A stretch of 41,023 nucleotides of DNA from a virus (Duplodnaviria > Heunggongvirae > Uroviricota > Caudoviricetes): positions 1 through 41,023 of IMG/VR virus record IMGVR_UViG_2690316062_000001; one strand, 5' to 3'. The stretch's first letter is position 1, and every line of letters starts with the position of its first letter. Of this stretch, positions 1 to 35,928 are shown piece after piece. A model generated the notes under the pieces. It did not search any database. It had not been told where the DNA came from and saw nothing but the letters and a program-made list of their open reading frames with translations. The position numbers and the translations under genes were made by a program.

Positions 1-380
1 TCCTCATGCATAAGATAAGGGGCAAGTTCACTTCCTAAGTAGAACCCTGCTTCTTTACAGGTATCACCAATTATCGCGTTGGTTAATCCAAGGTTTTCGA
101 GAGCCGTTTTCACCGTGCCATCCGATTTGATATCGCCAAACGGATTCTTGCGGCTTAACAGCAGCGCGCGAAGCGCGGTAAGTAGCTGGTCGTGCCGCCC
201 CTTATCCAGGCTGGCACCGGACGCCTCCACAACGCTGCAAAGCTCCTCCTGCAACATGTCAAAGTAGTCATCATCCAGATCGGTGGCAGGCGTGCCGGTC
301 TGGGGGTTACCACGGGTAAAACCGTTCTTACCCGCGCCGAACTTATCCTTCTGCGCGGTTTTCGTGTCTATACGATGCAT
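1..380 (-). CDS. Side tail fibre protein, N-terminal 126 codons (gene continues beyond window start)
   Basis: Minus-strand ATG at 380-378 translates [47 protein letters not shown], the conserved N-terminus of lambdoid/Mu-type tail fibres; frame stays open to position 1. Confidence 0.75.
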
Positions 381-383
381 GGA

Positions 384-968
384 TTACTCCGGATATTTAA
401 AAATTACGTAGGTATGCGAAGGGCAGAGTTTGTTAAGCACGCACTCGACAACGGTGTCGCCCCAGATACGCAGTGCGGAATCACAGGGATCGCCACATGT
501 CATCCAGGTGGTGTTGGTGGCGGCTGGCATGTTGACCTGCCAGTAATAACGCCATTCCGGCGCATTCACTGCGTCAGTACAGGCCGATGAGCAGGTGAAC
601 GTGCTTTTATCGTATCGCGTGATAGTGGCGTCTGGTCTGCCCAGGGCAGCAAGCTGTGCAAGATAAAAATCCTCATTGATGCCGCCCGCCAGATTAACCT
701 TCGCATCCAGCCGTTGCTGACGCTGGCGAAGGGTCTGTGTCCCTGCGGGAATACATTCATCCGGCAGACCGCACAGACGCTCCCAGCGGTTTATCAGTTC
801 AGTGGTGGTGCGCGGATCCAGCTCCCGCATCAGGGCATCCGCACGCTGATGAACGCGGGTTAATGACGGTGCCGCACCGGCAATCGCCGGATCGCTGACT
901 GACCACGCCGGACCGGGCGGCAACAGTGCCGACAACAGACGGATATAATCATCGTTTGTCACGTCCAT
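384..968 (-). CDS. Tail/baseplate protein, Mu gp48-like (DUF2313-type)
   Basis: 194-aa ORF, overlaps upstream baseplate J gene by 10 nt; position and size fit the last baseplate gene before the fibre in Mu-type tail modules. Confidence 0.55.
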
Positions 969-2017
969 GAAATCGTCCCCAGTACCGCCAGTTCATTTTT
1001 TGCAATGGAGATATTGTCCACCGGTGCAAGCAACTGATGGCTGTATTCCCCGTTCGCACCGGAAATCGCCTCACTGATACGCGATACCTTCAGTTCTCCC
1101 TGCGGATAACCATCACGCAGCAGGAACGAACGCAACTCCGCGGTAATGGCAGCCCGTATTTCCGGTGTGTCCGGCGTCACGCGGATATGAAAATCCACCG
1201 TATGTGCCACCGGCCTGAATACATACAAATCAGAGCCTGCCACCGGGGCCAGTGGCCCGATATGTTGTCTTGCTGCCGTTTCCGTTGATTCTTCCGGAAT
1301 GGGATTAATCAGGTCACTGCTGGCAATCATCACACCGACAGTTCCCGTTCCCATCCAGTGACGGTATGTCCATGCGCGGGTAATGCCGGGCACTTCTTTA
1401 GCCCAGACGACATAGTCCCCGTCAGCCCCGCCCTGAGGCGTCCAGTAATACCGCTCAATGACGCGGGCGCGCCACGTTTCCAGCTCTTCAGTATCAAATC
1501 CACCTGTCAGGGTATCTGCCACGCCGGAAGACGGCAGACCATTCACCGGCGTGACCAGGATTAATGACGTACCGTCGTCAGCGTTACCGACCGCGCCTGC
1601 ACTTGAGCAGGCGATCGGCACGCGCAGGACACCACTGGAGCTGGTTGCATCGGCAGTTGCCGTGTACTGAACCAGGTCATCGCGCTGAATAACACTCCCG
1701 GCGGTCACCTTCAGGCCATCGCTGACACCTTCCCAGCGCATATACCCGCTGGCAGCCGTGGCCCCCTTGCGCGGACACCGTTTCATCGCAGCATGTCGCG
1801 CCAGCCAGGACTCATCGCACAGGTCAGGCAGCATGTTCATTGCCAGATAATCGATGTACCCGTAAACCGTATGCAGCGCCGCCGCATACACCTTTGCCCG
1901 CACGTCTTCATCCATGCGCCGGAGCGTGTCGCTGACGTCCAGCCTGGCGAATAAATCGTTACGGAGCATACTGATATTTTCTGCCAGCGTCGGGCGCTGA
2001 AATTCACTGTCCGCCAT
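959..2017 (-). CDS. Baseplate J-like protein (Mu gp47-like)
   Basis: 352-aa ORF in baseplate gene run; overlapping starts and stops with neighbours typical of a structural operon. Confidence 0.65.
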
Positions 2018-2432
2018 GCGTTATCGCACTCCACAGATCATCAAAAGAAATCATTACCGGTCCGTCACGACGCCAGAGAGTGATACTGTTACCCAGTTCA
2101 TTAATCCCGGTGCGGCGGATATCCAGATCAATACGGGACACCACGCCGTCATCAGTCATCCATTGCAGGCATTCGCGGATATACCCCCTTACCGTCTGCA
2201 CCAGCTGATTGGTCAGTTTGCTGCGCTGAAGCAGCCACAGTCGGGAGCCGTAACGGTCATTCTGTACCGCAGGCCAGGTATCCCCCCACCATCCCATCGG
2301 GACGTCGGCGTTGTCATCAGGCTCCGCCCGCCGCCAGGTAAACAGGGAAATCACCACGGCGCGGGTCAGCGGATCCAGCGGTGCGCTGGCGCAGGTGCGT
2401 TTACCGTTCACCGTCAGCCACAGTTCCATCAT
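2004..2432 (-). CDS. Baseplate protein, Mu gp46-like (phage GP46 family)
   Basis: 142-aa ORF between spike and J genes; order matches Mu-type baseplates. Confidence 0.55.
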   Translation of the reverse strand: MMELWLTVNGKRTCASAPLDPLTRAVVISLFTWRRAEPDDNADVPMGWWGDTWPAVQNDRYGSRLWLLQRSKLTNQLVQTVRGYIRECLQWMTDDGVVSRIDLDIRRTGINELGNSITLWRRDGPVMISFDDLWSAITHGGQ

Positions 2433-2977
2433 GCCTCCATCGCTTTATCAGGTTTGTCGGTGTTACTGCCCTGACCGTTCTCTCTGTGACGATGCCCATT
2501 ATAGGCAAGCCGCATCGCTGACATGGTGGTGCCGCCGGAGTCGCACAGGTCTTTCACCTGTCCTGTCACTTCCAGGTCCATTTCAAAACGCGCTTTAGGT
2601 GAATTGCGAAACGTGATCGTTTTACCTGCACCGTCCACCACAATCCCCTCCCGGGTCAGCGTCACGGACTGCCCCTGATCGTCATAGACAGCCACCTCAC
2701 CCGTCTGCAGCCCTTTCAGGCGGTAGCGCCGGTCCGACACCGTAACAACCACCGCATGAGAACGGTCGCCATCCGGAAACAACACCACCGCTTCCGCACC
2801 GCTGTTTGCCCTTGCGGTAAAACCGTAGGGTTCAAGATGTTCAACCCCGGCTTTGGGTTCACCGGCAATCAGGGACACATCCACGGTCTGACATTTCGTG
2901 GCGGCACTGATACTTTTCACCACTGCCCGCCCAATCAGGCCGAGGAGTTGTCGCTGCATGGCTTCAATCGTCCTCAT
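2429..2977 (-). CDS. Baseplate assembly protein V / central spike (Mu gp45-like)
   Basis: 182-aa ORF, ATGA overlap with next gene, downstream of hub protein gene. Confidence 0.6.
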   Translation of the reverse strand: MRTIEAMQRQLLGLIGRAVVKSISAATKCQTVDVSLIAGEPKAGVEHLEPYGFTARANSGAEAVVLFPDGDRSHAVVVTVSDRRYRLKGLQTGEVAVYDDQGQSVTLTREGIVVDGAGKTITFRNSPKARFEMDLEVTGQVKDLCDSGGTTMSAMRLAYNGHRHRENGQGSNTDKPDKAMEA

Positions 2978-4056
2978 CAGAACGGGTCCTCCTGTACTCT
3001 GGCTTTTTTCTTTTTCCGCGCGCCGGGGGCTTCGGGTTCAGGCAGATAAGCATCAGGTGGGCCGACACGGATTTCCGTCAGGGTGCCGTTCTGGTCCTGA
3101 GTAAACGTGACTTCCGAGACAAGCAGTTCGGTATTGTCGAAACCACAGACCGGATCGAAGACAATCACCCGCTGGTTGGGCTGCCACAGCGTACCGTTAC
3201 CCTGTCGCCAGCCCTGCACCACATAGGTGGTTTCATCCGTCCGCGCCGCCCGTTGCCGGGCTTCAAAGTCAGCACGCGCGATACAGCCTGCCCCCGTGGC
3301 CTGCCCTGTCTGCCTGATATACATCGGACGGTAACGGGCAATAAATGCGTCCTCTGTGCGGGCCCGCAGCGCGGTGGTGGTGGTCTCACCGAAATCATCG
3401 TCGTTTCCGGCACGCTGCCCCGCCACCTGGTAAACAGAAAATCGCTCCCGGATACTCTTCTCCGTATCGCAGGAAAGGATGTTTTCCCCGAGTACCAGCG
3501 CAGTATGTGCCCGCGTTGAGCCAATACCGCCAATCACCAGCCTGCCGTGCGGGTCGTCGTAAGCCAGTGCCTGCTGCTGACCGAGTATTTTGTTGATTAC
3601 CTCAATCACCGTTTCACCGTGATCAGGCTGAACATCAGGAATAACACCCGACGGCGCACCGCTGTTCACCACCTCAATACCGAAAGGCGCAGCAAGCGCC
3701 TGCGCAATCTGCACCAGCGAGCGTCCGTTAAACTGTGTCGGTTCGGCTGCACAGTCAATCAGGTCTGCCGTCAGACTACGTCCGGCAATACCGGTGCTGA
3801 CCGAACGGGCATCGTAACGAACGGGCGTCGCCTCCACCCAGCCGGTGATCACCAGCTCATCACCAATCAGCACTTCCACTTTTGAACCATTTTTAATGCG
3901 CGGCTGAAGCGTGGTGATACCCTCATCTCCCGGCCACTGGCGGGTGATCTCCACACTGAAATCCCGCGCCAGCCGTTCAATACCGGCACCGATGCGCACC
4001 GATGTCCAGCCATTCCACTCCCGGCCATTTACCCGTAGCGTGACATTGTCGTTCAT
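2977..4056 (-). CDS. Baseplate hub / tail protein (Mu gpP-like, late control D family)
   Basis: 359-aa ORF after the DNA circulation gene; 4-nt overlap with it. Confidence 0.6.
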   Translation of the reverse strand: MNDNVTLRVNGREWNGWTSVRIGAGIERLARDFSVEITRQWPGDEGITTLQPRIKNGSKVEVLIGDELVITGWVEATPVRYDARSVSTGIAGRSLTADLIDCAAEPTQFNGRSLVQIAQALAAPFGIEVVNSGAPSGVIPDVQPDHGETVIEVINKILGQQQALAYDDPHGRLVIGGIGSTRAHTALVLGENILSCDTEKSIRERFSVYQVAGQRAGNDDDFGETTTTALRARTEDAFIARYRPMYIRQTGQATGAGCIARADFEARQRAARTDETTYVVQGWRQGNGTLWQPNQRVIVFDPVCGFDNTELLVSEVTFTQDQNGTLTEIRVGPPDAYLPEPEAPGARKKKKARVQEDPF

Positions 4057-5387
4057 TGCACTGGCACCTTCAGAGGGATCACCGGCACAAAGCCGGGATG
4101 CGTAATGGCATTACGCCGGATAATGTCCGCGTCACGCGCCGCGTTATCAAACCAGGTCGCCGCCAGCACCAGCGCGGGTAAAACCTCATCCGGTGTGCGC
4201 TGAATGATCCGTGCAGACTGTTCAAGGCGCGTGTTGATATCCGCATTCAGATCTGCTTTCACCCGGCGCAGCGCCAGAAACAGCGCATCACTGGTTGTAC
4301 GGGACAACTCCTTATCAATTGCCGTATTCAGTGTGTCGCGAATGTCAGTCAGTTCTTCCCACGTCGGCAGATCAACCGTGTTTTTCACCGCCGGTGCATT
4401 GTTCAGTGCCGGATGCGTGACGGAAGGCCAGCCGGTGCTCTGCGCAGCTGTTGTTGCCTGCCCCACTGCGGCATTCTGCATCACCGCGGAAGTTGTTGGC
4501 GCAGGCAATCGGGTGACGGCATACGCCGCTTCGCTGATTGCGGTCGTACGAAGGGTGCTGGCAACCACGTTACGCTGCTGCGTCGCCGTGGCGGTGGTTT
4601 TACTGTCCGTTTTCCAGACGCCGCGCGGTTGCAGATCGCTGCCGAGGCTGACACCGGAAAGCGTTTTGATCATGGTGACCAGGTCGCTGGCGTTACCATA
4701 AAGGCGTTTCCCGGTACGCCACATTTTCTGCACCTGCTCAACGAAATTTTTGCCTGACGATGGCGGCGGCAGAAGTACCGAGATATCCCCCTGCAACAGC
4801 CTGGCGGCATCCGATACGGCAGAATCCACCACTTTCATCGCATCAGAAACATACCCCAGCATTATGCTGGCATTACCGATAACGTCGTTCTGCACGAAAT
4901 CCGCCACACCATCGATACTGAAACCGCTGAAGCTGTCACTGATGCAGTCATCCAGTGCAGAACAGGATGACATCAGCGTCTGCGCCGTCGCCGCACCTGA
5001 TGTGGGGTAAGAGAGTTCTCCTGCTTCGACAAACTTCAGGTCAAAGCGGACAATACGCCCTTCACTTTTCGATGTGCTGACCCGAACTTCCCCGTCAACA
5101 CAGACTTTCAGCTCACCATATGTCGGGTGGACAAGCGTGCCGGGACCGGGTTTATTCAGCGCTTCAATCAGGCGATCGCGCTGGTCAAAGCAGTCATCTC
5201 CCACCACATAAGCTGTGATGGACGGGCGGAAAGTGACTTTTCCCAGATCTTCGGTATAGGGCTTGTCGCGGTTCGGGTATTCATGTGTTTCCACACGGCG
5301 ACCGGTTCCCGCACTTTCTTCTTCAACCTTAAACGGCACACCTCGAAATGACGCATCCTGAAGCCTGTCTTTCCACGTCATATACAC
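4053..5387 (-). CDS. DNA circulation protein (Mu gpN-like)
   Basis: 444-aa ORF; N-terminus MYMTWKDRLQDASFRGVPFKV...THEYPNRDKPYTEDLG...PGPGTLVHPTYGEL matches the recalled Mu N signature. Confidence 0.7.
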   Translation of the reverse strand: MYMTWKDRLQDASFRGVPFKVEEESAGTGRRVETHEYPNRDKPYTEDLGKVTFRPSITAYVVGDDCFDQRDRLIEALNKPGPGTLVHPTYGELKVCVDGEVRVSTSKSEGRIVRFDLKFVEAGELSYPTSGAATAQTLMSSCSALDDCISDSFSGFSIDGVADFVQNDVIGNASIMLGYVSDAMKVVDSAVSDAARLLQGDISVLLPPPSSGKNFVEQVQKMWRTGKRLYGNASDLVTMIKTLSGVSLGSDLQPRGVWKTDSKTTATATQQRNVVASTLRTTAISEAAYAVTRLPAPTTSAVMQNAAVGQATTAAQSTGWPSVTHPALNNAPAVKNTVDLPTWEELTDIRDTLNTAIDKELSRTTSDALFLALRRVKADLNADINTRLEQSARIIQRTPDEVLPALVLAATWFDNAARDADIIRRNAITHPGFVPVIPLKVPVQ

Positions 5388-5390
5388 TCC

Positions 5391-5421
5391 GAAAATAAAA
5401 AAGCCACCTATTAGAAGGTGG
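5391..5421 (-). terminator. Rho-independent terminator after tail-operon moron
   Basis: Minus strand reads GCCACCT-tctaat-AGGTGGC followed by TTTTTTATTTT, immediately 3' of the 5443-5973 ORF. Confidence 0.6.
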
Positions 5422-5442
5422 CCTTGTAATGAATTTTATTAA

Positions 5443-5973
5443 TTAGCGGGTCAGAAACAACGAATCTTTATACTTTTGCTGTTGTTCATTTAAATACTTA
5501 GCTGTTTCATCGCTGGCAAATGGAAATATTACCGTATTTTTAGGCATGGTAATTTCTTTTTTGTCCAGCGTCAGAGTAAACATAGGAACATACTGAGCAG
5601 AGTAACGCACCGCAGAAACGAGCTCTAGTTTAGACTCTTCAATAACACTTAAATTATCCAGGCTAACTTTCTCTTCATCTTTTTTCTTTGACGCATTTAA
5701 AGTTTTTATTACTTTATTTAATTTCTCCTGAAAATCCTCCTTAAAGTTTTCAGGATTGCCGTCGACAACAAGAATCTGTTCACCCTGATTATCTGGAAAA
5801 ATAATCTTTGCACTTATCAATTTATTTTCTTTATAAACATCACCAAGTTTTATGGCTCCTCCAGATAACTGAATAATATGTTCATCTTTAAAGGAGATGT
5901 TGCCAGAGATTATGAGAGATGAAAAAATAGCCGCTGCTCCAAGAATTACACTTGCTGTGATATAGCCTTTCAT
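5443..5973 (-). CDS. Hypothetical membrane-anchored or secreted protein (AT-rich moron inside tail operon)
   Basis: 176-aa ORF with hydrophobic N-terminus MKGYITASVILGAAAIFSSLIISG; visibly AT-rich compared with GC-rich flanking tail genes; own terminator. Confidence 0.6.
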   Translation of the reverse strand: MKGYITASVILGAAAIFSSLIISGNISFKDEHIIQLSGGAIKLGDVYKENKLISAKIIFPDNQGEQILVVDGNPENFKEDFQEKLNKVIKTLNASKKKDEEKVSLDNLSVIEESKLELVSAVRYSAQYVPMFTLTLDKKEITMPKNTVIFPFASDETAKYLNEQQQKYKDSLFLTR

Positions 5974-6064
5974 TTTTCGCCTATTAACATTTTTCTAAAT
6001 GTGCATTAATTCTATCACTCTATTTATGACTTACAACCAGCAATACATGTGAGGGGAATCCTGG

Positions 6065-7897
6065 CTACCAAAATCGGGTATAGCCAACATCGTGATTTAT
6101 ATCAATGCCACTGGAGCGTGTTTCCGTAACCCGCATACCTGGTGGCATATTTATAAATGATACCTTGATCTCACCATCAACTTTTGGCGCGGTAGCTTTA
6201 TTAATCATGAAGGGATTCGAGCCTGTGGCATCGGAGGCGTTGTTTGCCTGAGCCGGATCCACCGCCGGATAAGGAGTGTATCCCCGTGCCGGTATTCCCG
6301 TCCCATAAGCATCATAAGCACCCGCGCCCCACTGCGCAGAGTTAATGGCATCGACCGTGTCACCGGAACTGTCGGTAAACCACTCAATAATTGGCTTCAG
6401 CTTGTCCCACATATCCTGAAACCACTTAACAACCGGCCCCCAGTTATTGATCACCATCCCCAGCGGCGACCAGGCAAAAACTTTCTTAAGGAGTTCCCAG
6501 CCAGCCTCAAAATAAGGACCAATGGTTTCCCAGAGCTTCTTGAAATAAGGTCCGACAACATCCCAGTTAGTGATAATTAATCCCGCAGCCAGGGCTATCG
6601 CCGTCGCAATCATGCCAATCGGCGTCATCGACATGATCCTGCTGACAATGCTGATGGCACTGCCCACGCCCATCAATCCCAGTTTCAGAATCGCAAGACC
6701 GGCAGCAAGCCCGACGACGGCGCGAATAACCCGGGGATTTTCATCCGCAAACTTCGTGAATTTTTCCCCCAACTCCCCCAGCCATTGCGTGATATTTTTG
6801 GCGTCACCAGAAAATGCGCCGCCAATAGCCGCAAGGCCGTTAGTTGCGGTCCCCGTCATTGCCTCCCACAGGTTGGACAGCGTACCAAGCTGTGCCTGAA
6901 CACGTTTATTCAGGCTGGCCTGTTTATTCATCTTTTGCTGGATCTGATCGTAACCATCCTTTCCTTTATCGATCAGCGCATTGACCACCTGAAGGGTTTC
7001 GGCATCATCACCAAATATTGCCTTAAGTACACCTGTTCGCTTAACGTCGGTAAGTTTTCGCAGCTTTGCCAGTTGCTTAAACATGTTATCAAGACCGCCA
7101 AAACTTCCTTTGCCGTCAGTAAAATCGAGCTGTACCCCGAGTTTCTGACGGGCCATAACTTTATTGACGTCCCTGATTTTCTTAACGCTTAATCCGGACT
7201 GGATAACTTTTCGCAGGGCATTACCTGCCGACTCCCCGTTCATCCCCATCTGATCCATCATGACGCTGATGGGGGCAAGGCTCTGTGCAGCCTGAAGACC
7301 GTCCTTGTTCACCATCTTCAGAACAGAACTGGTTTTAGTGAAGAAGGACAACATGTTGGTATCGTCAACGCCCAGATAAAACGCCTTCTGGATAGTGTCG
7401 AACAGCCCCATCATGTCTTCTGACGCCGTTCCGGTAGCATCCTGCATCTTTGCAGCAAACTCAGCAGCCGCTTCCGGTGTTTTTTTTAGTTGTACCGCAA
7501 GATAAGCTGTCGCTTTACCCACACCGCCAAGAATATTTTCTGCCGGGATCCCCTGACGCACCAGCATCTGCATCATGTTCTGGAAATCAGCCGTTGTACC
7601 GGGTAGCTGGTTACCCAGGCCAATAGCCAGTTTATTGATGCCCTGAAAGCTCTTTCCGACCTCGCCGTTCGCATCCATCATGGCGACTTTCAGCCCGGTG
7701 GCGGCGTTTTCCTGATCGGCATAAGATTTCAGGGAAAGCGTCAGCCCCGCTGCCAATCCGCCACCAAGCGCCAGCCCACCCTGTGACGCCTCTTCCGCCT
7801 GGCGTTTAAATCCCCGGATTTTCTTTTGCATTTTCGACAGCGCGGGAGAAAGCCTGTCGACACCGGTGATCAACGCCTTAAGCTCAAATTCAGCCAT
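6065..7897 (-). CDS. Tail tape measure protein
   Basis: 610-aa ORF rich in Gly/Ala with hydrophobic segments, immediately after chaperone frameshift pair. Confidence 0.85.
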   Translation of the reverse strand: MAEFELKALITGVDRLSPALSKMQKKIRGFKRQAEEASQGGLALGGGLAAGLTLSLKSYADQENAATGLKVAMMDANGEVGKSFQGINKLAIGLGNQLPGTTADFQNMMQMLVRQGIPAENILGGVGKATAYLAVQLKKTPEAAAEFAAKMQDATGTASEDMMGLFDTIQKAFYLGVDDTNMLSFFTKTSSVLKMVNKDGLQAAQSLAPISVMMDQMGMNGESAGNALRKVIQSGLSVKKIRDVNKVMARQKLGVQLDFTDGKGSFGGLDNMFKQLAKLRKLTDVKRTGVLKAIFGDDAETLQVVNALIDKGKDGYDQIQQKMNKQASLNKRVQAQLGTLSNLWEAMTGTATNGLAAIGGAFSGDAKNITQWLGELGEKFTKFADENPRVIRAVVGLAAGLAILKLGLMGVGSAISIVSRIMSMTPIGMIATAIALAAGLIITNWDVVGPYFKKLWETIGPYFEAGWELLKKVFAWSPLGMVINNWGPVVKWFQDMWDKLKPIIEWFTDSSGDTVDAINSAQWGAGAYDAYGTGIPARGYTPYPAVDPAQANNASDATGSNPFMINKATAPKVDGEIKVSFINMPPGMRVTETRSSGIDINHDVGYTRFW

Positions 7898-8072
7898 GTG
7901 TGCGTTTCTCCTGCTCTATCCTGTTTGCCTGACTGACCAGCAAGGGAATTTCACTGATCGGCATATTCAGCAATTCGAAGGGATTAATGCGCCAGTAGCT
8001 GGCGCAGTCAAAGAAGCGATCAGTGAGGTATTCAGCCGTCAGGCCTGGAGGAAAAAACCAGCCACAAGCCAC
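7890..8072 (-). CDS. Tail assembly chaperone, -1 frame C-terminal extension (reached by programmed frameshift)
   Basis: ORF overlapping the 3' end of the 8039-8308 gene in the -1 frame; reading through the slippery site gives ...WFFPPGLTAEY... Confidence 0.55.
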   Translation of the reverse strand: MACGWFFPPGLTAEYLTDRFFDCASYWRINPFELLNMPISEIPLLVSQANRIEQEKRTHG

Positions 8073-8308: not shown

Positions 8309-8664
8309 TACTGGTAATCCCCTTCTTCACCGTGGAACTCAAGATCAACCGTGCCTTCTTCGGCATTATGGTTCGCTTCTCCGTGCAGCCAGGCGGACGA
8401 CAATACATAGACCTGACCGTTCGCCAGCTCGGCAGTGATGGTCATCTCATCAGACGAGGTGATTTTGCTCACCGGAAAATTCTTCGGCACCTTGAAGGTC
8501 CCTTTGACATAAGGCGCACGGTGAGTTTCCTTGCGGTCCACTGAACCGTCCAGGCCGATGATGTCATCATTGACCGTCCTGTTCATGGGCACCTCAATGC
8601 CGCCGGTCAGCGATAGCTGCTGACCGTCAATTTTGAAATAACAGGTTCCCCCGATACGGGCCAT
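8308..8664 (-). CDS. Tail tube protein
   Basis: 118-aa ORF directly after sheath gene; MARIGGTCYFKIDGQQL... is tube-like. Confidence 0.75.
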   Translation of the reverse strand: MARIGGTCYFKIDGQQLSLTGGIEVPMNRTVNDDIIGLDGSVDRKETHRAPYVKGTFKVPKNFPVSKITSSDEMTITAELANGQVYVLSSAWLHGEANHNAEEGTVDLEFHGEEGDYQ

Positions 8665-27865: not shown

Positions 27866-27889
27866 TGCCTTATCAGTTAACGCCGCAGT

Positions 27890-28117
27890 TTAGGCGGCAG
27901 AATTACTCGCGTTAAACAATGGTGCGAGGTCGGGACGAATATCTGCTGGTTTAATCTTTCCACCAGTGGCTGAGACAATTTTCATTACATAGCGGGCATC
28001 AATTCCGCCACCGTGTAGCCAACGCCAAACTGTGGGTTGGGCTACACCGCATAGATCTGCCAGTCGTTTTTGACTGCCTGTAATACTGATTGCGAGTTGA
28101 ATGGTTTGATTTGTCAT
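27890..28117 (-). CDS. Cro/YdaS-like HTH repressor
   Basis: Start at ATG preceded by AGGA; HTH QKRLADLCGVAQPTVWRWL; divergent from cI. Confidence 0.6.
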   Translation of the reverse strand: MTNQTIQLAISITGSQKRLADLCGVAQPTVWRWLHGGGIDARYVMKIVSATGGKIKPADIRPDLAPLFNASNSAA

Positions 28118-28151
28118 TATCAATTCCTATTGGTATTGCAATGAATGAATA

Positions 28152-28180
28152 ATAGCAATGCGTATTAATCCAAGCAATAG
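28152..28180 (-). promoter_or_regulatory. PR-like promoter for the cro/replication operon
   Basis: Minus strand TTGCTT-17 nt-TATTAT upstream of the cro-like gene; overlaps AGCAATAGCAA operator-like motif. Confidence 0.45.
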
Positions 28181-28191
28181 CAAAACGTGTT

Positions 28192-28220
28192 TTGACCATC
28201 AATACGCAAGCGTATAAATT
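28192..28220 (+). promoter_or_regulatory. PRM-like promoter for cI (near-leaderless)
   Basis: TTGACC then 15-17 nt then TATAAA/TAAATT; expected start lies within a few nt of the cI ATG at 28228. Confidence 0.4.
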
Positions 28221-28227
28221 AAAACTT

Positions 28228-28920
28228 ATGAAAAAAGAAACTCTTGCTGATCGCTTAAATCTAGCGATGGAACAATCTGGAATGTCTCAAGGCGCTCTTG
28301 CAAAGGCGTCTGGCGTAGCTCAACCCACAATCTGGAGACTGACAAGCGGCAACGCGCGCGGCTCAACAAAAATTGTTGAAATAGCTAATGCATTGGGTGT
28401 TCGAACAGAATGGCTCTCTTCAGGCATAGGCCCGATGAGAAATGACGGTCAACAATCAGGGAAGCCTGCTGTCAGCCATTCCAAATACTTCAAAATTGAC
28501 GTTCTTGATATAGAAGTCAGTGCCGGGCCGGGTGTAATCAACCGTGAGTTTGTAGAAGTTCTACGCTCGGTTGAATACTCGTTTGACGATGCTCGTCACA
28601 TGTTCGATGGCAGGAAGGCGGAAAATATCCGCATCATTAACGTGCGTGGTGACAGCATGTCAGGAACGATCGAACCAGGTGATCTGCTGTTCGTTGATAT
28701 CACGGTTAAATCTTTCGACGGTGATGGTATCTATGCGTTTCTGTATGACGACACCGCCCATGTAAAACGCCTGCAAATGATGAAGGATAAGCTGCTGGTT
28801 ATCTCTGATAACAAGAGCTACTCACCGTGGGACCCGATCGAGAAAGACGAGATGAACCGCGTGTTCATCTTCGGGAAAGTCATCGGGAGCATGCCGCAGA
28901 CATATAGAAAGCATGGGTAG
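28228..28920 (+). CDS. CI-type repressor (HTH plus S24 LexA-like autopeptidase)
   Basis: N-terminal HTH QGALAKASGVAQPTIWRL; C-terminal GDSMSGTIEPGDLLFVD (Ser) and HVKRL (Lys) catalytic dyad. Confidence 0.85.
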   Translation: MKKETLADRLNLAMEQSGMSQGALAKASGVAQPTIWRLTSGNARGSTKIVEIANALGVRTEWLSSGIGPMRNDGQQSGKPAVSHSKYFKIDVLDIEVSAGPGVINREFVEVLRSVEYSFDDARHMFDGRKAENIRIINVRGDSMSGTIEPGDLLFVDITVKSFDGDGIYAFLYDDTAHVKRLQMMKDKLLVISDNKSYSPWDPIEKDEMNRVFIFGKVIGSMPQTYRKHG

Positions 28921-29049: not shown

Positions 29050-30189
29050 ATGGCAGCGGTTGAATTTCAATTGTCTAGGAAGATGATTGATTGGATAGCA
29101 AATTCTCAAGGAGTTTCTATCGAAACTCTTGCTGACCAAGTCATGCCCAAAAAGATTAATAAATTTCTTAACGGAGTGGTAAGTAAATCCGCAGCAGAAA
29201 AACTGGCAAAAATTGGAGGAATCCCTTTCGGTTTTTTATTTCTTGAAACGCCACCAACTCCAGCCAAACCCAAGATCCCTGACTTAAGGCAAGCTATAAA
29301 TAGCCGTGAGTTAGGAAAAGATTTTTTTGATGTTTACTATGATATAGAATATAAACTTGAGTGGTACAAAGACTATTTAAGAGAAAATGGTAATGATGAT
29401 CCACTCGATTTTATTGGTAAATTTAAATTTAATAGAAAATTAAATTATAAGGTTGTTGCTACAGACATAGCAAACACAATACATTTTGATATACAAAAAG
29501 AGATAAAAAATGTCACTTTTGAGAGCTATTTTTCTAAAGTGGCAAAATTAATAGAAGACACTGGCGTATTAGTTTTCAAGAATGGTGTTGTGGGTAATAA
29601 TAATAAAAGAAAACTTGACACGCGAGAGTTTCGTGGTTTCTGTATATCTGATAGCGTTGCTCCGATCATTTTTGTAAATAGCTCGGACGCGTTATCTGCG
29701 CAGGTATTTACATTATTTCATGAGGTGGCTCATCTTTGGCTTGGAGTCGATGGAGTCTCTGGGTGGGACACAGAAAAAAACATAGAATCTTTTTGTAATA
29801 AAGTTGCTGCTGAAATCTTAATGCCTGATAATCTCTTCAAATCTTTCTGGCTTAATGCATCCAGCGATAATAATTATTATCGAGTAAAAGAGGTTTCTAA
29901 GTTATTTAAGGTTAGTGATTTCGCTTGTGCAATCAAAGCGTTACAATTAGATTTGATAGAAAGAAACACTTTGGAGATAATTAAAGATCAAGCTTACAAT
30001 AAGCCCAAAAAAGAATCTAATGGTGGTTCTTTCTTTAACACATTACCTGTTCGTAACAGTCCAAAACTTACGAATATAATAATTTCCAAAGCAATGTCTC
30101 AACAATTACCATTAAGGGAAGCAGGCGTACTGCTAAATGTAAAAGCAGATACAGTTGTTGAATTTTATAAAAAACGAGAATCTCTATGA
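29050..30189 (+). CDS. HTH domain fused to ImmA/IrrE-family zinc metallopeptidase (COG2856)
   Basis: AGGTGA RBS; N-terminal HTH-like segment; HEVAHLWLG (HExxH) followed by VAAEILMP, the ImmA/IrrE signature; strongly AT-rich. Confidence 0.8.
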   Translation: MAAVEFQLSRKMIDWIANSQGVSIETLADQVMPKKINKFLNGVVSKSAAEKLAKIGGIPFGFLFLETPPTPAKPKIPDLRQAINSRELGKDFFDVYYDIEYKLEWYKDYLRENGNDDPLDFIGKFKFNRKLNYKVVATDIANTIHFDIQKEIKNVTFESYFSKVAKLIEDTGVLVFKNGVVGNNNKRKLDTREFRGFCISDSVAPIIFVNSSDALSAQVFTLFHEVAHLWLGVDGVSGWDTEKNIESFCNKVAAEILMPDNLFKSFWLNASSDNNYYRVKEVSKLFKVSDFACAIKALQLDLIERNTLEIIKDQAYNKPKKESNGGSFFNTLPVRNSPKLTNIIISKAMSQQLPLREAGVLLNVKADTVVEFYKKRESL

Positions 30190-30698
30190 TTCATAATGGA
30201 AAATTCTTAATTGATAGTAATGTCTTCATAGAGGCAAAAAACTTTGCATATAACTTCAATTATTGCAAAATATTTTGGGATTTTCTTCTCGCTTTACACA
30301 TTAATGGTCTGATTTATAGCATTAATGCTGTAAAAAAAGAACTATGTGCAAAAGATGATCCATTGTGTAAATGGATTAAAGAAGAGTTACCATCATCATT
30401 CTTCGAAGATGAGCATAGTTCAATAGAAAATTATGCAAAGTTAATAAATTGGTCAACTAAATTAGATGTTACCGAAAAGGCAAAGTTTGATTTTGCAAGC
30501 CATGAAAAAGCAGATGCTTTTTTAATAGCCCATGCGATGACACATGGATATACTATTATTACCCATGAGAAACCATCCGGTGGCAAACCTAAAAAAAGAA
30601 TAATGATCCCGGATGCTGCTGCTTCTCACGGCGTTAAGACATTAACACTATATGAATTTCTTCCAAGATACGCTAGTCATAATTTTTCTTTGAAATAA
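30186..30698 (+). CDS. PIN-like nuclease domain protein (DUF4411 family)
   Basis: ATGA start/stop overlap with upstream gene; N-terminal FLIDSNVFIEAKN PIN-like strand with Asp; further acidic residues spaced as in PIN folds; ...IAHAMTHGYTIITHE. Confidence 0.7.
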   Translation: MIHNGKFLIDSNVFIEAKNFAYNFNYCKIFWDFLLALHINGLIYSINAVKKELCAKDDPLCKWIKEELPSSFFEDEHSSIENYAKLINWSTKLDVTEKAKFDFASHEKADAFLIAHAMTHGYTIITHEKPSGGKPKKRIMIPDAAASHGVKTLTLYEFLPRYASHNFSLK

Positions 30699-30703: not shown

Positions 30704-30730
30704 CCCGGCCACCGTGCCGGGTTTTCTTTT
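30704..30730 (+). terminator. Rho-independent terminator ending the cI-cassette operon
   Basis: CCCGGC-caccgt-GCCGGG followed by TTTTCTTTT, 6 nt after the stop at 30698. Confidence 0.7.
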
Positions 30731-30860
30731 GCCTCCCCTCATCACACACACCGTTCAAAAAACCACCACAACCCCGCTTCAGTTATCGCTATGCGATGCA
30801 AGTCACAAAATTAATTCTTTTTGCTATCAAATATTTAATATCAAAACACATCTAGCAATA

Positions 30861-30889
30861 GCAATAAGTATTGATATCATCAATAGCAA
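30861..30889 (+). promoter_or_regulatory. PL-like promoter with operator-like repeats
   Basis: TTGATA-17 nt-TATTAT; spacer and flank carry AGCAATAGCAATA / CAATAGCAATAGC, the same motif as in the cro-cI intergenic region. Confidence 0.45.
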
Positions 30890-31176
30890 TAGCTATTATC
30901 ACCATGTCGCAACAACACAACGATACGGCAATCACCTGATTCACCGTTGCGATGACCGCTTAGATCCGCAGCTTGAATTTCAGCAGGCTCCGGGGAGTGC
31001 GAGGGGTGAAGCGGACGCGTGAACGTCGGTGTGACCAGCTGAAATCAACTCAACACTTCATACCTTAGTCGCTTCAACGAGGCGGCTTAGTTATGACAAC
31101 CGGCGGCCATCCACCGCCTGAATACGCGCAGAAGTCTCTATATGTTCAGCAGCCCAGCTTACGGGCAGGAGTTTTT

Positions 31177-31383
31177 ATGGTTCATCAACATTACGGAACG
31201 CAGACCGTTAATCGCGGCGCGGTCATGCCAGGAATGCTGGTCAAACACAAAGATGGTACCTGGACTGCATCAGCTAATTTACGCGGACGGCTTTATCTGC
31301 ATCGCGGCATCGAGCGCACTTATACCCGTGATTTGCTCGTGGAAGTTTTTCTCGACGGACGCGGTAACGGCCTGAATCACTAA
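31177..31383 (+). CDS. Hypothetical early protein (kil/cIII position)
   Basis: 68-codon ORF starting at ATG with CAGGAG 7 nt upstream (MVHQHYGTQTVNRGAV...); the longer 31093 start lacks an RBS. Confidence 0.35.
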   Translation: MVHQHYGTQTVNRGAVMPGMLVKHKDGTWTASANLRGRLYLHRGIERTYTRDLLVEVFLDGRGNGLNH

Positions 31384-31459
31384 CCCCCCTTTCCTGTTTT
31401 CCTAATCAGCCTGGCATTTCGCGGGCGCTATTTTCACAGCCATTTTCAGGAGTTCAGCC

Positions 31460-31756
31460 ATGAACGCTTATTACATTCAGGATCGTCTTGAGGCTCAGAG
31501 CTGGGCGCGTCACTACCAGCAGATCGCCCGTGAAGAGAAAGAGGCAGAACTGGCAGACGACATGGAAAAAGGCCTACCCCAGCATTTGTTTGAATCGCTC
31601 TGCATCGATCATTTACAACGCTGCGGGGCCAGCAAAAAAGCCATTACCCGTGCATTTGATGACGATGTTGAGTTTCAGGAGCGCATGGCAGAACACATCC
31701 GGTACATGGTTGAAACCATTGCTCACCATCAGGTTGATATTGATTCAGAGGTATAA
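31460..31756 (+). CDS. gam: Gam, RecBCD inhibitor (short GamS-length form)
   Basis: 98-aa [63 protein letters not shown]..., recalled as near-identical to lambda GamS. Confidence 0.9.
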
Positions 31757-31761
31757 AACGG

Positions 31762-32547
31762 ATGAGTACAGCACTCGCAACGCTGGCTGGGAAGCTGGCT
31801 GAACGTGTCGGCATGGATTCTGTCGACCCACAGGAACTGATCACCACTCTTCGCCAGACGGCATTTAAAGGTGATGCCAGCGATGCGCAGTTCATCGCAT
31901 TGTTGATCGTCGCCAACCAGTACGGCCTTAATCCGTGGACGAAAGAAATTTACGCCTTCCCTGATAAGCAGAACGGCATCGTTCCGGTGGTGGGCGTTGA
32001 TGGCTGGTCCCGCATCATCAATGAAAACCAGCAGTTTGATGGTATGGACTTTGAGCAGGACAATGAATCCTGCACATGCCGGATTTACCGCAAGGACCGC
32101 AATCATCCGATCTGCGTTACCGAGTGGATGGATGAATGCCGCCGCGAACCATTCAAAACCCGCGAAGGCAGAGAAATCACCGGACCGTGGCAGTCGCATC
32201 CCAAACGGATGTTACGTCATAAAGCCATGATTCAGTGTGCCCGTCTGGCCTTCGGATTTGCTGGTATCTATGACAAGGATGAAGCCGAGCGCATTGTCGA
32301 AAATACCGCATACACTGCAGAACGTCAGCCGGAACGCGACATCACTCCGGTTAACGATGAAACCATGCAGGAGATTAACACTCTGCTGATCGCCCTGGAT
32401 AAAACATGGGATGACGACTTATTGCCGCTCTGTTCCCAGATATTTCGCCGCGACATTCGCGCATCGTCAGAACTGACACAGGCCGAAGCAGTGAAAGCTC
32501 TTGGATTCCTGAAACAGAAAGCCACTGAGCAGAAGGTGGCAGCATGA
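31762..32547 (+). CDS. bet: Bet (Red-beta) single-strand annealing protein
   Basis: 261-aa [69 protein letters not shown]..., matches recalled lambda Bet. Confidence 0.95.
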
Positions 32548-33224
32548 CACCGGACATTATCCTGCAGCGTACCGGGATCGACGTAAGAGCTGTCGAACAG
32601 GGGGATGATGCATGGCACAAATTACGGCTCGGCGTCATCACCGCTTCAGAAGTTCACAACGTGATAGCAAAGCCCCGCTCAGGAAAGAAGTGGCCTGACA
32701 TGAAAATGTCCTACTTCCACACCCTGCTGGCTGAGGTTTGCACCGGTGTGGCTCCGGAAGTTAATGCTAAGGCGCTGGCATGGGGAAAACAGTACGAGAA
32801 CGACGCCAGAACCCTGTTTGAGTTCACTTCCGGCGTGAATGTTATTGAATCCCCGATCATCTATCGCGACGAAAGTATGCGTACCGCCTGCTCTCCCGAT
32901 GGTTTATGCAGTGACGGCAATGGCCTTGAGCTGAAATGCCCGTTTACCTCCCGGGATTTCATGAAGTTCCGGCTCGGTGGTTTCGAGGCCATAAAGTCGG
33001 CTTACATGGCCCAGGTGCAGTACAGCATGTGGGTGACACGAAAAGATGCCTGGTACTTTGCCAACTATGACCCGCGTATGAAGCGTGAAGGACTGCATTA
33101 TGTCGTGGTTGAGCGGGATGAAAAGTACATGGCGAGTTTTGACGAGATGGTGCCGGAGTTCATCGAAAAAATGGACGAGGCACTGGCTGAAATTGGTTTT
33201 GTATTTGGGGAGCAATGGCGATGA
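32544..33224 (+). CDS. exo: Exo (lambda exonuclease)
   Basis: 226-aa [47 protein letters not shown]..., matches recalled lambda Exo; ATGA overlap with bet. Confidence 0.95.
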
Positions 33225-33403
33225 CGCATCCTCACGATAATATCCGCGTAGGCACGATCACTTTCGTCTACTCCGTTACGAAGCGAGGCTGGGTATTTCC
33301 CGGCCTTTCTGTTATCCGAAATCCCCTGAAAGCACAGCGGCTGGCTGAGGAGATAAATAATAAACGGGGAGCTGTATGCACAAAGCTTCTCCCGTTGAGT
33401 TAA
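33215..33403 (+). CDS. Hypothetical protein
   Basis: 62-aa ORF overlapping the exo stop; no recognisable motif. Confidence 0.3.
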
Positions 33404-33567
33404 GAACGAGTATCGAGATGGCACATAGCCTCGCTCAAATTGGAGTCAGGTTTGTGCCAATACCAGTAGAAACAGACGAAGAATTTCATACGTTAGCCGC
33501 ATCCCTTTCACAAAAGCTGGAAATGATGGTGGCGAAAGCAGAAGCAGATGAGAGAGACCAGGTATGA
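33376..33567 (+). CDS. Hypothetical protein (lambda b-region orf63-like)
   Basis: 63-aa acidic [26 protein letters not shown]... Confidence 0.45.
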   Translation: MHKASPVELRTSIEMAHSLAQIGVRFVPIPVETDEEFHTLAASLSQKLEMMVAKAEADERDQV

Positions 33568-33647
33568 CAACCACTGAATGCATTTTTCTGGCAGCGGGCT
33601 TCATATTCTGTGTGCTTATGCTTGCCGACATGGGGCTTGTTCAATGA
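33564..33647 (+). CDS. Candidate small hydrophobic peptide (27 aa)
   Basis: MTTTECIFLAAGFIFCVLMLADMGLVQ; ATGA-type overlaps at both ends (with 33376-33567 and 33644-33859). Confidence 0.25.
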   Translation: MTTTECIFLAAGFIFCVLMLADMGLVQ

Positions 33648-33859
33648 CACCTCAGCAAGAAAACGCCCTTCGCAGCATTGCCCGTCAGGCTAATTCTGAA
33701 ATCAAAAAAGCCAGACAGCAGTTTCCGGATAATAACGTCGATGACATTTGCCGTAGCGTACTAAAGAAGCACCGCGAAACGGTAATGCTGATGGGATTCA
33801 CACCGACTCATTTAAGCCTGGCGATCGGCATGTTGAACGGCGTCTTTAAGGAACGGTGA
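33644..33859 (+). CDS. Hypothetical protein
   Basis: Start at internal Met MTPQQENALRSIARQ... of the 33578 ORF, overlapping the small-peptide stop. Confidence 0.4.
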   Translation: MTPQQENALRSIARQANSEIKKARQQFPDNNVDDICRSVLKKHRETVMLMGFTPTHLSLAIGMLNGVFKER

Positions 33860-33957
33860 ACATGAAAAGCAAAATCATCAGGGAGCTACAGGCTCCTTTT
33901 TTATTATTCGCATTTACCCTCAAGCGTATTAACCAACAATTCAGGGATTAATGAAAG

Positions 33958-34176
33958 ATGGCAGACATCATTGATTCAGCATCAGAAATCGAAGAATTAC
34001 AGCGCAATACAGCAATAAAAATGCGTCGTCTGAACTACCAGACTGTATCCGCAACTCATTGTTGTGAGTGTGGCGATCCGATAGATGAGCGAAGACGCCT
34101 GGCTGTTCAGGGTTGTCGGACTTGTGCGAGTTGCCAGGAGGAGATCGAACTTAAGAACAAACAATGGGGACTGTGA
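33958..34176 (+). CDS. TraR/DksA-family C4 zinc-finger protein
   Basis: 72-aa ORF with CxxC...CxxC (CCECGDPIDERRRLAVQGCRTCASC). Confidence 0.75.
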   Translation: MADIIDSASEIEELQRNTAIKMRRLNYQTVSATHCCECGDPIDERRRLAVQGCRTCASCQEEIELKNKQWGL

Positions 34177-34223
34177 TGGCCTCAAAGCAGCAAATTTCAA
34201 CATCGTCCAACTGAGGTGTAAAA

Positions 34224-34502
34224 ATGTTCAGAATCATTTTTCCTAACACCTGGTACGTCGACCACCACGGCACTCCCTGCAAAATCCTGCGTTCTACCCA
34301 CAACAAAGTTCACTACATCCGAAAAGGCAGAACATGTATCGCCAGCATGTTCCGCTTTAATCATGACTTTGAACCTGTGAATAAAGCTGATGCAGATCGG
34401 ATAGCAGAAGAGATCGAAACGGCAGAACACATTAAGAAGTTACGTGACATGCGTTCAAAAAGCAGAGGTAACCATGGAATCATACAGCCTCACACTCGAT
34501 GA
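34224..34502 (+). CDS. Hypothetical protein
   Basis: 92-aa ORF upstream of xis; basic. Confidence 0.35.
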   Translation: MFRIIFPNTWYVDHHGTPCKILRSTHNKVHYIRKGRTCIASMFRFNHDFEPVNKADADRIAEEIETAEHIKKLRDMRSKSRGNHGIIQPHTR

Positions 34503-34824
34503 GGCCTGTCAGTTTCTTAAGATATCCAGACCAACCGCCACCAACTGGATACGAACAGGCCGCCTACAGGCAACACGCAAAGACCCCACTAAACTAAAAT
34601 CTCCTTACCTCACAACACGACAAGCCTGCATTGCGGCGCTTCAGTCTCCGCTGCATACTGTCCAGGTGAGCGCGGGTGATGGCATAACAGAGGAAAGAAA
34701 ATGTCACTCTTCCGCAGAGGTGAAATATGGTACGCCAGTTTCACATTGCCGAACGGTAAAAGATTTAAACAGTCTCTTGGAACAAAGGACAAAAGGCAGG
34801 CGACAGAGCTCCATGACAAGCTAA
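34474..34824 (+). CDS. xis: Excisionase (P22 Xis-like)
   Basis: 116-aa product from [32 protein letters not shown] (HTH); overlaps the int start by about 120 nt. Confidence 0.65.
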
Positions 34825-35864
34825 AGGCTGAAGCATGGCGGGTCAGCAAACTTGGTGAAATACCTGATATGACGTTCGAGGAGGCGTGTATCAGGTGGCT
34901 CGAAGAGAAAGCACATAAAAAATCACTGGACGATGACAAAAGCCGGATCGGATTCTGGCTTCAACATTTCGCAGGAATGCAACTAAGAGACATTACTGAA
35001 TCAAAAATTTATTCAGCAATGCAGAAAATGACGAACCGGCGTCATGAGGAAAACTGGAAACTCAGGGCAGAAGCATGCAGAAAAAAAGGGAAACCAGTTC
35101 CAGAATACACGCCAAAACCAGCGTCCGTTGCAACGAAGGCTACGCATCTTTCATTTATAAAGGCCCTGCTAAGAGCCGCAGAGCGTGAATGGAAAATGCT
35201 GGATAAGGCACCAATTATTAAAGTGCCTCAACCAAAGAATAAACGGATCCGCTGGCTGGAGCCCCATGAAGCACAAAGGCTGATTGATGAATGTCCGGAG
35301 CCATTAAAGTCTGTTGTTGAATTTGCACTGGCAACAGGCTTAAGACGCTCGAACATCATCAACCTTGAATGGCAACAAATAGATATGCAGCGCCGGGTGG
35401 CATGGATAAACCCGGAAGAGAGTAAATCAAACCGCGCAATTGGCGTTGCGCTGAATGATACTGCATGTCGCGTATTGAAAAAACAAATCGGGAATCATCA
35501 CCGTTGGGTATTTGTGTACAAGGAAAGCTGTACCAAACCAGACGGAACGAAAGCGCCAACAGTAAGGAAGATGCGGTATGACGCAAACACAGCCTGGAAA
35601 GCAGCGCTGAGACGGGCTGGTATTGATGATTTCAGATTTCACGACTTGAGACACACCTGGGCAAGTTGGCTGGTTCAAGCCGGAGTCCCGTTGTCAGTGT
35701 TACAGGAAATGGGAGGCTGGGAGTCTATCGAAATGGTTCGTCGATATGCTCACCTTGCACCTAATCACCTTACCGAACACGCACGGCAAATAGACTCGAT
35801 CCTGAACCCATCGGTCCCAAATTCGTCCCAGTCAAAAAATAAGGAAGGTACTAATGATGTGTAA
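34701..35864 (+). CDS. int: Tyrosine integrase (P22/DLP12 Int-like)
   Basis: 387-aa [45 protein letters not shown]...; catalytic-domain motifs ...[10 protein letters not shown]...RYAHL; stop 16 bp from the att core. Confidence 0.9.
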
Positions 35865-35880
35865 CTTATTGATTTAAATG

Positions 35881-35928
35881 GTGCCGATAATAGGAGTCGA
35901 ACCTACGACCTTCGCATTACGAATGCGA
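35881..35928 (-). other. att core: 48-bp copy of the 3' end of tRNA-Thr(CGU) (thrW-type), not a complete tRNA
   Basis: Reverse complement GCATTCGTAATGCGAAGGTCGTAGGTTCGACTCCTATTATCGGCACC corresponds to anticodon loop (CGT), T-arm and acceptor 3' strand of tRNA-Thr; flanking sequence on the 5' side does not continue the tRNA. Confidence 0.7.

Follow-up and report, generated by a model that had tools for sequence, protein, structure and literature searches.

Phages of the SfV type are lambdoid-organised myoviruses that combine an HK97-fold head and HNH-assisted cos packaging with a Mu-like contractile tail. The serotype-converting phages SfI, SfII, SfIV and SfV are myoviruses of this kind: they are temperate and inducible, use thrW as their integration site and build heads of the HK97 family (PMC3851460). 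For SfIV, an isometric head of ~55 nm and a contractile tail of ~100 nm are reported. This architecture, with lambdoid early genes, a P22-type integrase and the thrW site, has already been published in the genome papers of the four phages, and such prophages are common in Escherichia coli and Shigella. Here we describe a related element in a 41,023-nt stretch of viral DNA (IMG/VR record IMGVR_UViG_2690316062_000001, positions 1 to 41,023; hereafter the window). Very probably, positions 1-35927 of the window make up most of a temperate SfV/SfI/SfII/SfIV-family prophage inserted at thrW, including its right-hand end but not its left.

The open reading frames (ORFs) of the window fall into a minus-strand block from position 1 to ~28.1 kb and a plus-strand block from ~28.2 to 35.9 kb, beyond which the DNA is of lower GC content (Table 1). 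Within the prophage the genes follow the lambda-like order int-xis, recombination, repressor-cro, O-P, nin, Q, lysis and late genes. SfI, SfII, SfIV and SfV share the order of the genome, integration at thrW, and Red and P genes that resemble those of lambda. When the first 20 kb were compared with phage genomes by megablast, 93% were covered by vB_EcoM-689R6 at 96.4% identity and 86% by each of SfII and SfI at 97.4-97.5%, while SfIV and SfV covered 73% and 67%, respectively. The alignment with SfI (JX509734; blastn) runs over window positions 85-5405 and 6071-17900 with 97.2-97.5% nucleotide (nt) identity, and again over 33662-35924 with 98.5%, where it stops at the annotated attP core of SfI. 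From terS to the N-terminus of the tail fibre, and over int, xis and the attP core, identity to SfI is therefore 97-98.5% nt, with 89% nt for the HNH gene and 93-100% amino acid (aa) identity for the proteins. We tested 22 SfI structural proteins whose genes are entirely contained in the window; all of them align at 93-100% aa, either end to end or short of no more than the last few residues (tape measure protein, 609 of 611; SfI_010, 164 of 168). The SfV-type resemblance suggested in the initial annotation is thus well founded for the late region and int/xis, to which SfII, SfIV and SfV are similarly close.

The second half of the window has other relatives. Lambdoid phages such as PhiR47_2, 4A7, Lambda_4C10 and Perceval match it at ~97% identity over half its length, and SfI matches it over the int end. 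In blastn, PhiR47_2 (PV340567) aligns with window positions 18951-23625, 23588-24239, 25531-27860, 28364-28920 and 30703-34453 at 89-97% nt, and identity is 95-97% nt over 18951-24239, 25531-27860 and 30703-34453; the same 95-97% nt holds for the early, nin, Q and holin region against both PhiR47_2 and 4A7 (genus Bievrevirus). At the protein level, the O, P, Q, holin and nin genes align full length to PhiR47_2 with 95-100% aa identity, and the values for O, P, YdaT-like, Q, RusA, YbcO, NinE and YbcN are 95-98% aa. However, PhiR47_2 and 4A7 have lambda-type heads, non-contractile tails, a different integrase and a different operator cassette and Cro, and carry a ybcK gene that is missing in the window. 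Since 4A7, which is closely related to PhiR47_2, carries a complete lambda-type siphovirus structural region, the window would be a recombinant between an SfI/SfII-type part and a lambdoid-siphovirus part. In this two-part and apparently recent recombinant, the late region and int/xis are of the SfI/SfII type and the early-to-lysis half would come from lambdoid siphoviruses like PhiR47_2 and 4A7.

The switches between SfI-like and PhiR47_2-like sequence in blastn are sharp, near 18.3-18.9 kb and 33.7-34.4 kb, as would also be seen if an SfI-type remnant and a lambdoid remnant lay adjacent to or nested in one another and had never been one replicating genome. We regard this as highly improbable. 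Gene for gene, the order matches a single SfI-type genome, running from cos through the late genes to the attachment site and then via int, the early genes, Q and lysis back to HNH; nothing is duplicated, and there is neither an internal att site nor an integrase remnant at the junctions; the sole thrW core in the window stands at its right end. The lambda-like early genes also occur in SfI (Bet 100%, Exo 99% and P 98% identical), and the combination of late region, lysis genes and nin block is contiguous in 71 E. coli genomes. These are the 71 of 5,426 complete E. coli genomes that contain at least 80% of window positions 1-25000, at ~97-98% identity.

The relatives of the element include E. 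coli thrW prophages and the induced phage vB_EcoM-689R6. Strain 2022CK-00450 is 98.9% identical over window positions 1-18328 without a gap, including the accessory gene beside the tape measure gene described below; strain Tig228 is 98.5% identical over 25531-33378, including the gene pair that follows the repressor gene; strain S1 shares an identical insertion in ren; and thrW prophages of the same type were also found in MB10. In our genome searches, no single genome record matched the whole arrangement of the window. Because no record holds it entire, the prophage is a new combination of known segments rather than a new kind of element.

The initial annotation had described the element as a mosaic of modules from four phage lineages. 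Comparing the window proteins by tblastn with lambda, Mu, HK97, P22 and the DLP12 region of K-12, we could recover most of what had been named. Counterparts of Mu gp38, gp39 (the sheath) and gp43-48 share 29-42% aa with Mu (sheath 36%, gp38-like 42%) and keep the Mu order, in agreement with the Mu-type contractile tail and baseplate that had been proposed, and the HK97-type head with HNH-terminase packaging is recognisable at 26-36% aa (TerL 26%, portal 32%, protease 36%, capsid 26%, HNH 36%). The DLP12-like nin block is 83-100% identical to K-12 DLP12 (YbcN 95%, NinE 100%, YbcO 97%, RusA 96%, YlcG 83%; EmrE 98% aa). Lambda-type replication and Red genes are likewise present (Gam 97%, Bet 100%, Exo 98%, orf60a/63/61 95-96%, P 98% and O 67% aa), and Int and Xis are each 90% identical to those of P22, as the assignment to a P22 type implied. 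What did not hold is the equal footing of the lineages: the Mu and HK97 resemblances are old and common to the whole SfV family, whereas the lambda, DLP12 and P22 similarities, at ~90-100%, are recent. The whole-genome comparison that the annotation had proposed instead brought out an SfI-type late half with int/xis and a lambdoid-type early half.

Window proteins match Mu only at gp23 and in the gp38-48 region, and none matches the Mu transposase genes A and B, head genes or regulators; with its tyrosine integrase and lambda-type O and P genes, the element is an integrase phage and not a transposable Mu-like one. HK97 is similar in its head and in the HNH gene at cos, but the tail in the window is of the contractile type (sheath and tube), no tail protein matches the siphovirus tail of HK97, and the likeness in the early region is limited to the R-type endolysin (90%) and a ybcO-like gene (71%). 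P22 shares the thrW site in addition to Int and Xis, and beyond these only a distant O-like protein (46% aa) and NinE (50% aa). With lambda the window has in common the order of early and lysis genes and the position of the ori iterons inside O, but by tblastn it is without the lambda-type head, tail, cI/cro/cII, N, Q, S, Rz, int and att.

Table 1. Features of the window; coordinates are window positions, and percentages refer to the phage or strain named.
Feature	Coordinates	Strand	Basis
Tail-fibre gene, N-terminal 126 codons	1..380	-	ORF open at left window edge
Baseplate/tail-tip genes: Mu gp48-, gp47- (baseplate J), gp46-, gp45- and gp44-like, and DNA-circulation (gp43-like)	384..5396	-	SfI 97-99% aa full length; Pfam in relatives
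Low-GC moron, 665-bp insert	5406..6070	-	Absent from SfI; GC 0.41 in that kb
176-aa protein, N-terminal hydrophobic (membrane or signal) segment	5443-5973	-	ORF; own terminator
Tape measure, tail assembly chaperone (8039-8308), tail tube, tail sheath, DUF2635 (Mu gp38-like)	6065..10314	-	SfI 97-100% aa full length
Tail terminator, head completion, head closure, head-tail connector	10323..12294	-	SfI 92-99% aa; PF05521, PF05135
Major capsid, prohead protease, portal, ymfR-like small gene, TerL, TerS	12344..17860	-	SfI 98-100% aa full length; PF05065, PF05119
cos region	17861..17976		SfI linear ends map to ~17901
HNH endonuclease, next to cos and terminase genes	17977..18327	-	SfI HNH 95% aa; PF01844
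Lysis cassette: o-spanin (~18354-18626), i-spanin (18511-18903), endolysin (18887-19363), holin (19350-19667)	18354..19667	-	Pfam, tblastn, translations
Q antiterminator and DLP12-like nin block (ylcG, rusA, ybcO, ninE, ybcN)	19977..22067	-	PF06323; PhiR47_2 95-98% aa
Alpha/beta-hydrolase (esterase) lipoprotein moron, inactivated	22515..23558	+	Pfam BD-FAE over two ORFs
emrE-like small multidrug-resistance transporter	23617..23949	-	PF00893; 98% aa to K-12 EmrE
ren, split: codons 29-100 (24235-24020) and codons 1-26 (25609-25532)	24020..25609	-	tblastn, junction sequences
Replication genes P (25606-26307) and O (26304-27323)	25606..27323	-	P 98% lambda; O 98% PhiR47_2, 67% lambda
Immunity region	27320..28920		PF06254, PF15943, PF00717, PF01381
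YdaT-like gene	27320-27865	-	Pfam
YdaS-type Cro-like gene	27890-28123	-	Pfam
cI repressor, helix-turn-helix (HTH) and Peptidase_S24 domains	28228-28920	+	Pfam
Two-gene cargo at lambda rexAB position, GC 0.34	29050..30698	+	Pfam, PADLOC, phrog_2439
ImmA/IrrE (M78) protein, 379 aa	29050-30189	+	PF06114 E 1e-13; PADLOC capP and RmrA
DUF4411 PIN-like protein	30186-30698	+	Pfam
Bidirectional terminator (30704-30721), then OL/pL cassette	30704..30910	+	Terminator scan, motif search, alignment
Early-left operon: kil, gam, bet, exo, orf60a, orf63, orf61, TraR-like, DUF4222	31177..34502	+	lambda tblastn; phrog_294 Kil; PGAP names in Tig228
xis (34474-34824) and tyrosine integrase int (34701-35864)	34474..35864	+	SfI 97%/99%, P22 90% aa; PF00589
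attR core, thrW 3' 49 nt	35879..35927	-	Exact match; 46 nt are the annotated SfI attP core
Second integrative island, left end, outside prophage	35928..41023	+	97.8% nt to E. coli ECONIH4
int2, 439-aa tyrosine recombinase with Arm-DNA-binding domain	36111-37430	+	Pfam
ATPase-like gene, 240-aa HATPase_c_4 protein	40214-40936	-	Pfam

Positions 2 and 38389 of the linear SfI genome meet at window positions 17900/17902 in blastn, between the HNH gene and terS, and the HNH segment (17902-18327) matches the opposite end of linear SfI at 89% nt, which places the cos region here. The lysis cassette was only in part of the lambda type that had been assigned to it: the endolysin is 89% identical to lambda R (tblastn), but the holin is LydA-type (PF16083) and the spanins are of the LysB/LysC type. 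The i-spanin shares 30% aa with Mu gp23 (tblastn), and the o-spanin is a LysC-like lipoprotein (PF23793) with the lipobox LLTGC, whose gene overlaps the i-spanin gene and runs past its end. The cassette is itself a mosaic, and with holin, endolysin and both spanins it is complete. The lysis genes of SfI are different ones, as are its nin genes and Q. The putative replication origin lies within O, where five iterons of 20 nt (TTTACCTGATTCGGGTAAAC and variants) at 26770-26884 adjoin an AT-rich stretch at 26738-26767.

At the right boundary of the prophage, the thrW fragment extends to position 35927, a single base from the end that had been proposed (35928), and the thrW-type core noted beside int is an exact 49-nt copy of the tRNA 3' end, which starts 14 nt past the int stop codon. 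The 5' half of the tRNA is absent, and ARAGORN found no intact tRNA in the window. An Rfam tRNA match at 35882-35954 (36 bits) was considered as a functional thrW and rejected, as it joins the real 3' fragment to unrelated 5' sequence. In the single lysogens Tig228 and S1, by contrast, int is followed directly by intact thrW (on the minus strand) and then by proA; in the window a second island stands in this place.

This island, of which the window holds the left end, encodes its own tyrosine recombinase (int2) and, by Pfam, a small HTH protein, a UCP007319-like protein and a YagK/YfjJ-family protein. In E. coli ECONIH4 the island extends ~44 kb to intact thrW and proA and carries sucrose-utilisation genes, conjugation-gene remnants and insertion sequence (IS) elements. 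The exact int2 protein occurs in eight further genomes, and in all eight the similarity to the window sets in at 35876-35881, no more than three bases from where the core begins; in seven of them an exact match to its first 30 nt was found. Since the island begins at the core in these eight genomes as well, the prophage would be one unit of a tandem array at thrW, with intact thrW expected further right. To the left of the core, the int2 genomes have P22-type prophages, P4-like satellites, defence genes or chromosome, and given such varied neighbours of the same core, the thrW core beside the island appears to act as a repeatedly used secondary attachment site. The HATPase_c_4 protein of the island resembles, in PADLOC, domains that occur in proteins associated with SIR2 and pAgo. 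Its counterpart in one of the other genomes is 410 aa long with an added Schlafen/AlbA_2 domain, and adjoins SMC-like and restriction-type genes.

The left boundary lies outside the window. The initial annotation had called the prophage apparently complete, a description that is unsupported because the window cuts the prophage within the tail-fibre gene: the fibre ORF is open from position 380 to position 3 and has no stop before the window edge, so that 126 codons are seen, of which the first 102 are 97% identical (aa) to SfI_023; attL lies beyond. E. coli 2022CK-00450, which is identical at the left edge of the window, has a full fibre ORF of 245 aa, beyond which lie fibre-assembly genes, a fibre segment in inverted orientation and an IS5 element.

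It could be asked whether the element is a serotype-converting phage, with gtrABC or oac O-antigen genes directly past the fibre gene. SfI carries its gtr genes there, in the interval from the fibre genes to attP, and the thrW prophage of S1 has an acyltransferase-family gene beside a fibre-assembly gene. We nevertheless consider such a cargo unlikely here, as 2022CK-00450 has its fibre-assembly genes and inverted fibre segment at this place and no gtr genes. An exact-protein look-up with the gp48-like baseplate protein returned eight other loci, none of them matching the window left of position 84; seven of the eight have fibre and fibre-assembly genes (six of these seven with a resolvase/invertase adjacent), and none shows gtr.

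With respect to integrity, the window shows no truncation in any of the genes it contains for replication, packaging, lysis and excision or for the head, tail shaft and baseplate. The earlier statement that no structural or replication gene is disrupted therefore holds, with the structural proteins as close to SfI as described above, but it does not extend to the accessory genes, two of which are broken. In ren, a 1292-bp insert (24240-25531) interrupts the gene at codon 27-28 and encodes a 249-aa outer-membrane beta-barrel protein (24375-25124, plus strand; PF13505, with a weak Lom-like PHROG match). This insertion is absent from SfI, the identical allele occurs in six of the 5,426 E. coli genomes, and in strain S1 the ren pieces are annotated as pseudogenes (PGAP). 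No convincing target duplication, terminal inverted repeat or transposon end was seen at the ends of the insert. In K-12 DLP12, renD is interrupted by IS3 at almost the same codon. In the hydrolase gene, an in-frame TAA (22950-22952) replaces a GAG codon of PhiR47_2, where the homologue is intact (347 aa), and the stop lies upstream of the GDSAGG motif. Lambda ren is dispensable. Because ren is dispensable and the hydrolase is cargo, the two lesions are no argument against viability. Between these two genes lies the emrE-like gene, which DLP12 likewise carries in its nin region; the window lacks the ybcK recombinase gene that stands next to it in DLP12 and PhiR47_2.

The immunity region differs from that of SfI, which has the lambda cI, cro, cII, N and rexAB genes, whereas the window has an S24-type repressor, YdaS/YdaT-type genes, a different gene pair at the rexAB position and no N. 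With its YdaS/YdaT arrangement the immunity is Rac-like. Both the putative right operator region (OR, ~28125-28190) and the left one (OL, ~30855-30905) contain ATAGCAAT, a sequence of which three of the six occurrences in the window lie within OR/OL and for which 1.3 occurrences are expected in the whole window. At OL, operator motifs at 30858 and 30883 accompany a promoter-like site (pL) at 30871-30899. About 95 bp around OL/pL are swapped relative to PhiR47_2, with both flanks nearly identical in the alignment, and the window version is that of E. coli Tig228. As Tig228 has the same repressor region, the immunity elements of the window match each other.

No N homologue was found in the window by tblastn with SfI N or by PHROG and Pfam searches. 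We considered an ORF at 30714-31022 as an N gene and rejected it, since it has no PHROG or Pfam match and overlaps the terminator and the pL-like promoter; PGAP annotates no gene at this position in Tig228, which has the same sequence. A leader of ~270 nt between pL and kil is conserved, but a put-like antitermination RNA within it was not borne out (fold z-score -1.4; in Rfam, only an implausible miRNA match at E <= 1).

Taken together, the gene set in the window is compatible with a functional, SOS-inducible phage, and it is plausible that the prophage is inducible. In line with this are the S24-type repressor, the matching OR and OL, the ori iterons and the intact packaging, head, tail, lysis, int and xis genes. 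Several observations weigh against this reading. The lack of an N homologue is one of them. The C-terminus of the tail fibre, the fibre-assembly genes and attL lie left of position 1; two accessory genes are pseudogenes; and, as no genome record has the whole arrangement, no exact counterpart is known to be inducible. Moreover, in 2022CK-00450 the left end of the prophage carries the IS5 and the gp48-like gene is interrupted by a stop codon, which suggests that decay of this prophage type is common, and the version in S1 is heavily deleted.

These points bear on the alternative that the prophage is defective (cryptic), that is, intact in the window and yet without infectious particles, owing to lesions in the tail fibre or attL outside the window or in regulatory sites. 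This is a serious, if not the favoured, possibility. Close relatives are visibly decayed, with the IS5 of 2022CK-00450 standing beside its fibre genes in addition to the broken gp48-like gene and with the whole structural region missing from S1; the two accessory pseudogenes imply that mutations have accumulated since integration; and the presence of another island between the prophage and the intact tRNA points to a site that has long been occupied. However, no essential gene inside the window is truncated, and identity to the counterparts in SfI, which was isolated as particles, is 93-100%. The window also has an unbroken gp48-like gene, unlike 2022CK-00450, as well as intact Int, Xis and attR core, and repressor, OR and OL match each other; these points speak against a defective prophage.

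For such a functional prophage, we propose the following life cycle, drawn from the anatomy of the element and from what is known of lambdoid phages. The genome would have been assembled by recent recombination of an SfI/SfII-like late region and int/xis with PhiR47_2/4A7-like early, nin and lysis genes, and the P22-type integrase would have inserted it at the 3' end of thrW, leaving the attR core at 35879-35927. In the lysogen, a LexA-like, S24-cleavable cI may hold the matching OR and OL, and induction would occur via the SOS response. Without the help of an N protein, transcription from pL would then cross kil, the Red genes, xis and int, while early-right transcription would cover the cro-like and YdaT-like genes, O, P, the nin genes and Q, and Q would switch on the lysis and late genes. 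The gene complement itself is seen in the sequence, and the roles in replication, packaging, head, tail, lysis and excision are predicted from it.

The prophage carries accessory cargo at two further places. The first is a low-GC moron between the tape measure and DNA-circulation genes, at a position where SfI has no insert, encoding a 176-aa protein that would be exported or anchored in the membrane. The protein belongs to phrog_5485 and is without a match in Pfam and PADLOC; a homologue search returned 25 unannotated proteins, all from Enterobacteriaceae, with E. coli, Lelliottia and Leclercia as the named sources. An AlphaFold2 model based on a 15-sequence alignment, which is of mediocre quality (predicted local distance difference test, pLDDT, 66.8; predicted template modelling score, pTM, 0.64), gave no Foldseek match in the PDB at E <= 0.001. 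In relatives, the same slot holds unrelated exported proteins of 162 aa or 164 aa (GC 0.31-0.34) or is empty. In MB10 a 'SNIPE associated domain' protein is listed under the match.

The second cargo, at the rexAB position of lambda, is the M78/DUF4411 pair, in which the start of the DUF4411 gene overlaps the stop codon of the M78 gene. In E. coli Tig228, too, the repressor gene is followed by this pair. The M78 protein has weak matches to eleven RmrA profiles of PADLOC, with best E-values from 6e-8 to 1e-7, and two of these matches are nearly full length; the DUF4411 protein has no match among the PADLOC profiles. HTH-ImmA proteins with a DUF4411 or other PIN-like partner have been predicted to form toxin-antitoxin or defence modules (PMC5499597; PMC10440598). 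The likeness to the RosmerTA/ImmA-protease toxin-antitoxin systems consists of the M78 domain, the weak RmrA matches over the full length and a small putative toxin gene downstream, but the DUF4411 partner in the window matches no PADLOC toxin profile. We therefore regard the pair as a candidate Rosmer-like toxin-antitoxin or defence system. In other phages and prophages the same position is occupied by GevT/GevA (PhiR47_2), RexAB (SfI) or a DUF6414 protein (2022CK-00450); a literature search for 'GevT' returned nothing relevant.

It may tentatively be suggested, and we put this forward as a doubtful rather than a probable proposal, that the tape-measure/DNA-circulation junction and the rexAB position are two exchangeable slots for lysogen-protecting genes.

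For the annotation of this DNA, the value of the analysis lies in the prophage boundary at 35927, the separate island beyond it and the missing left end. For the family, the prophage would provide an example of recent module exchange between phages that differ in tail morphology. The contents of both slots are candidates for exclusion or defence, and if the 176-aa protein and the M78/DUF4411 pair do keep out superinfecting phages, new determinants of exclusion or defence would be added by them.

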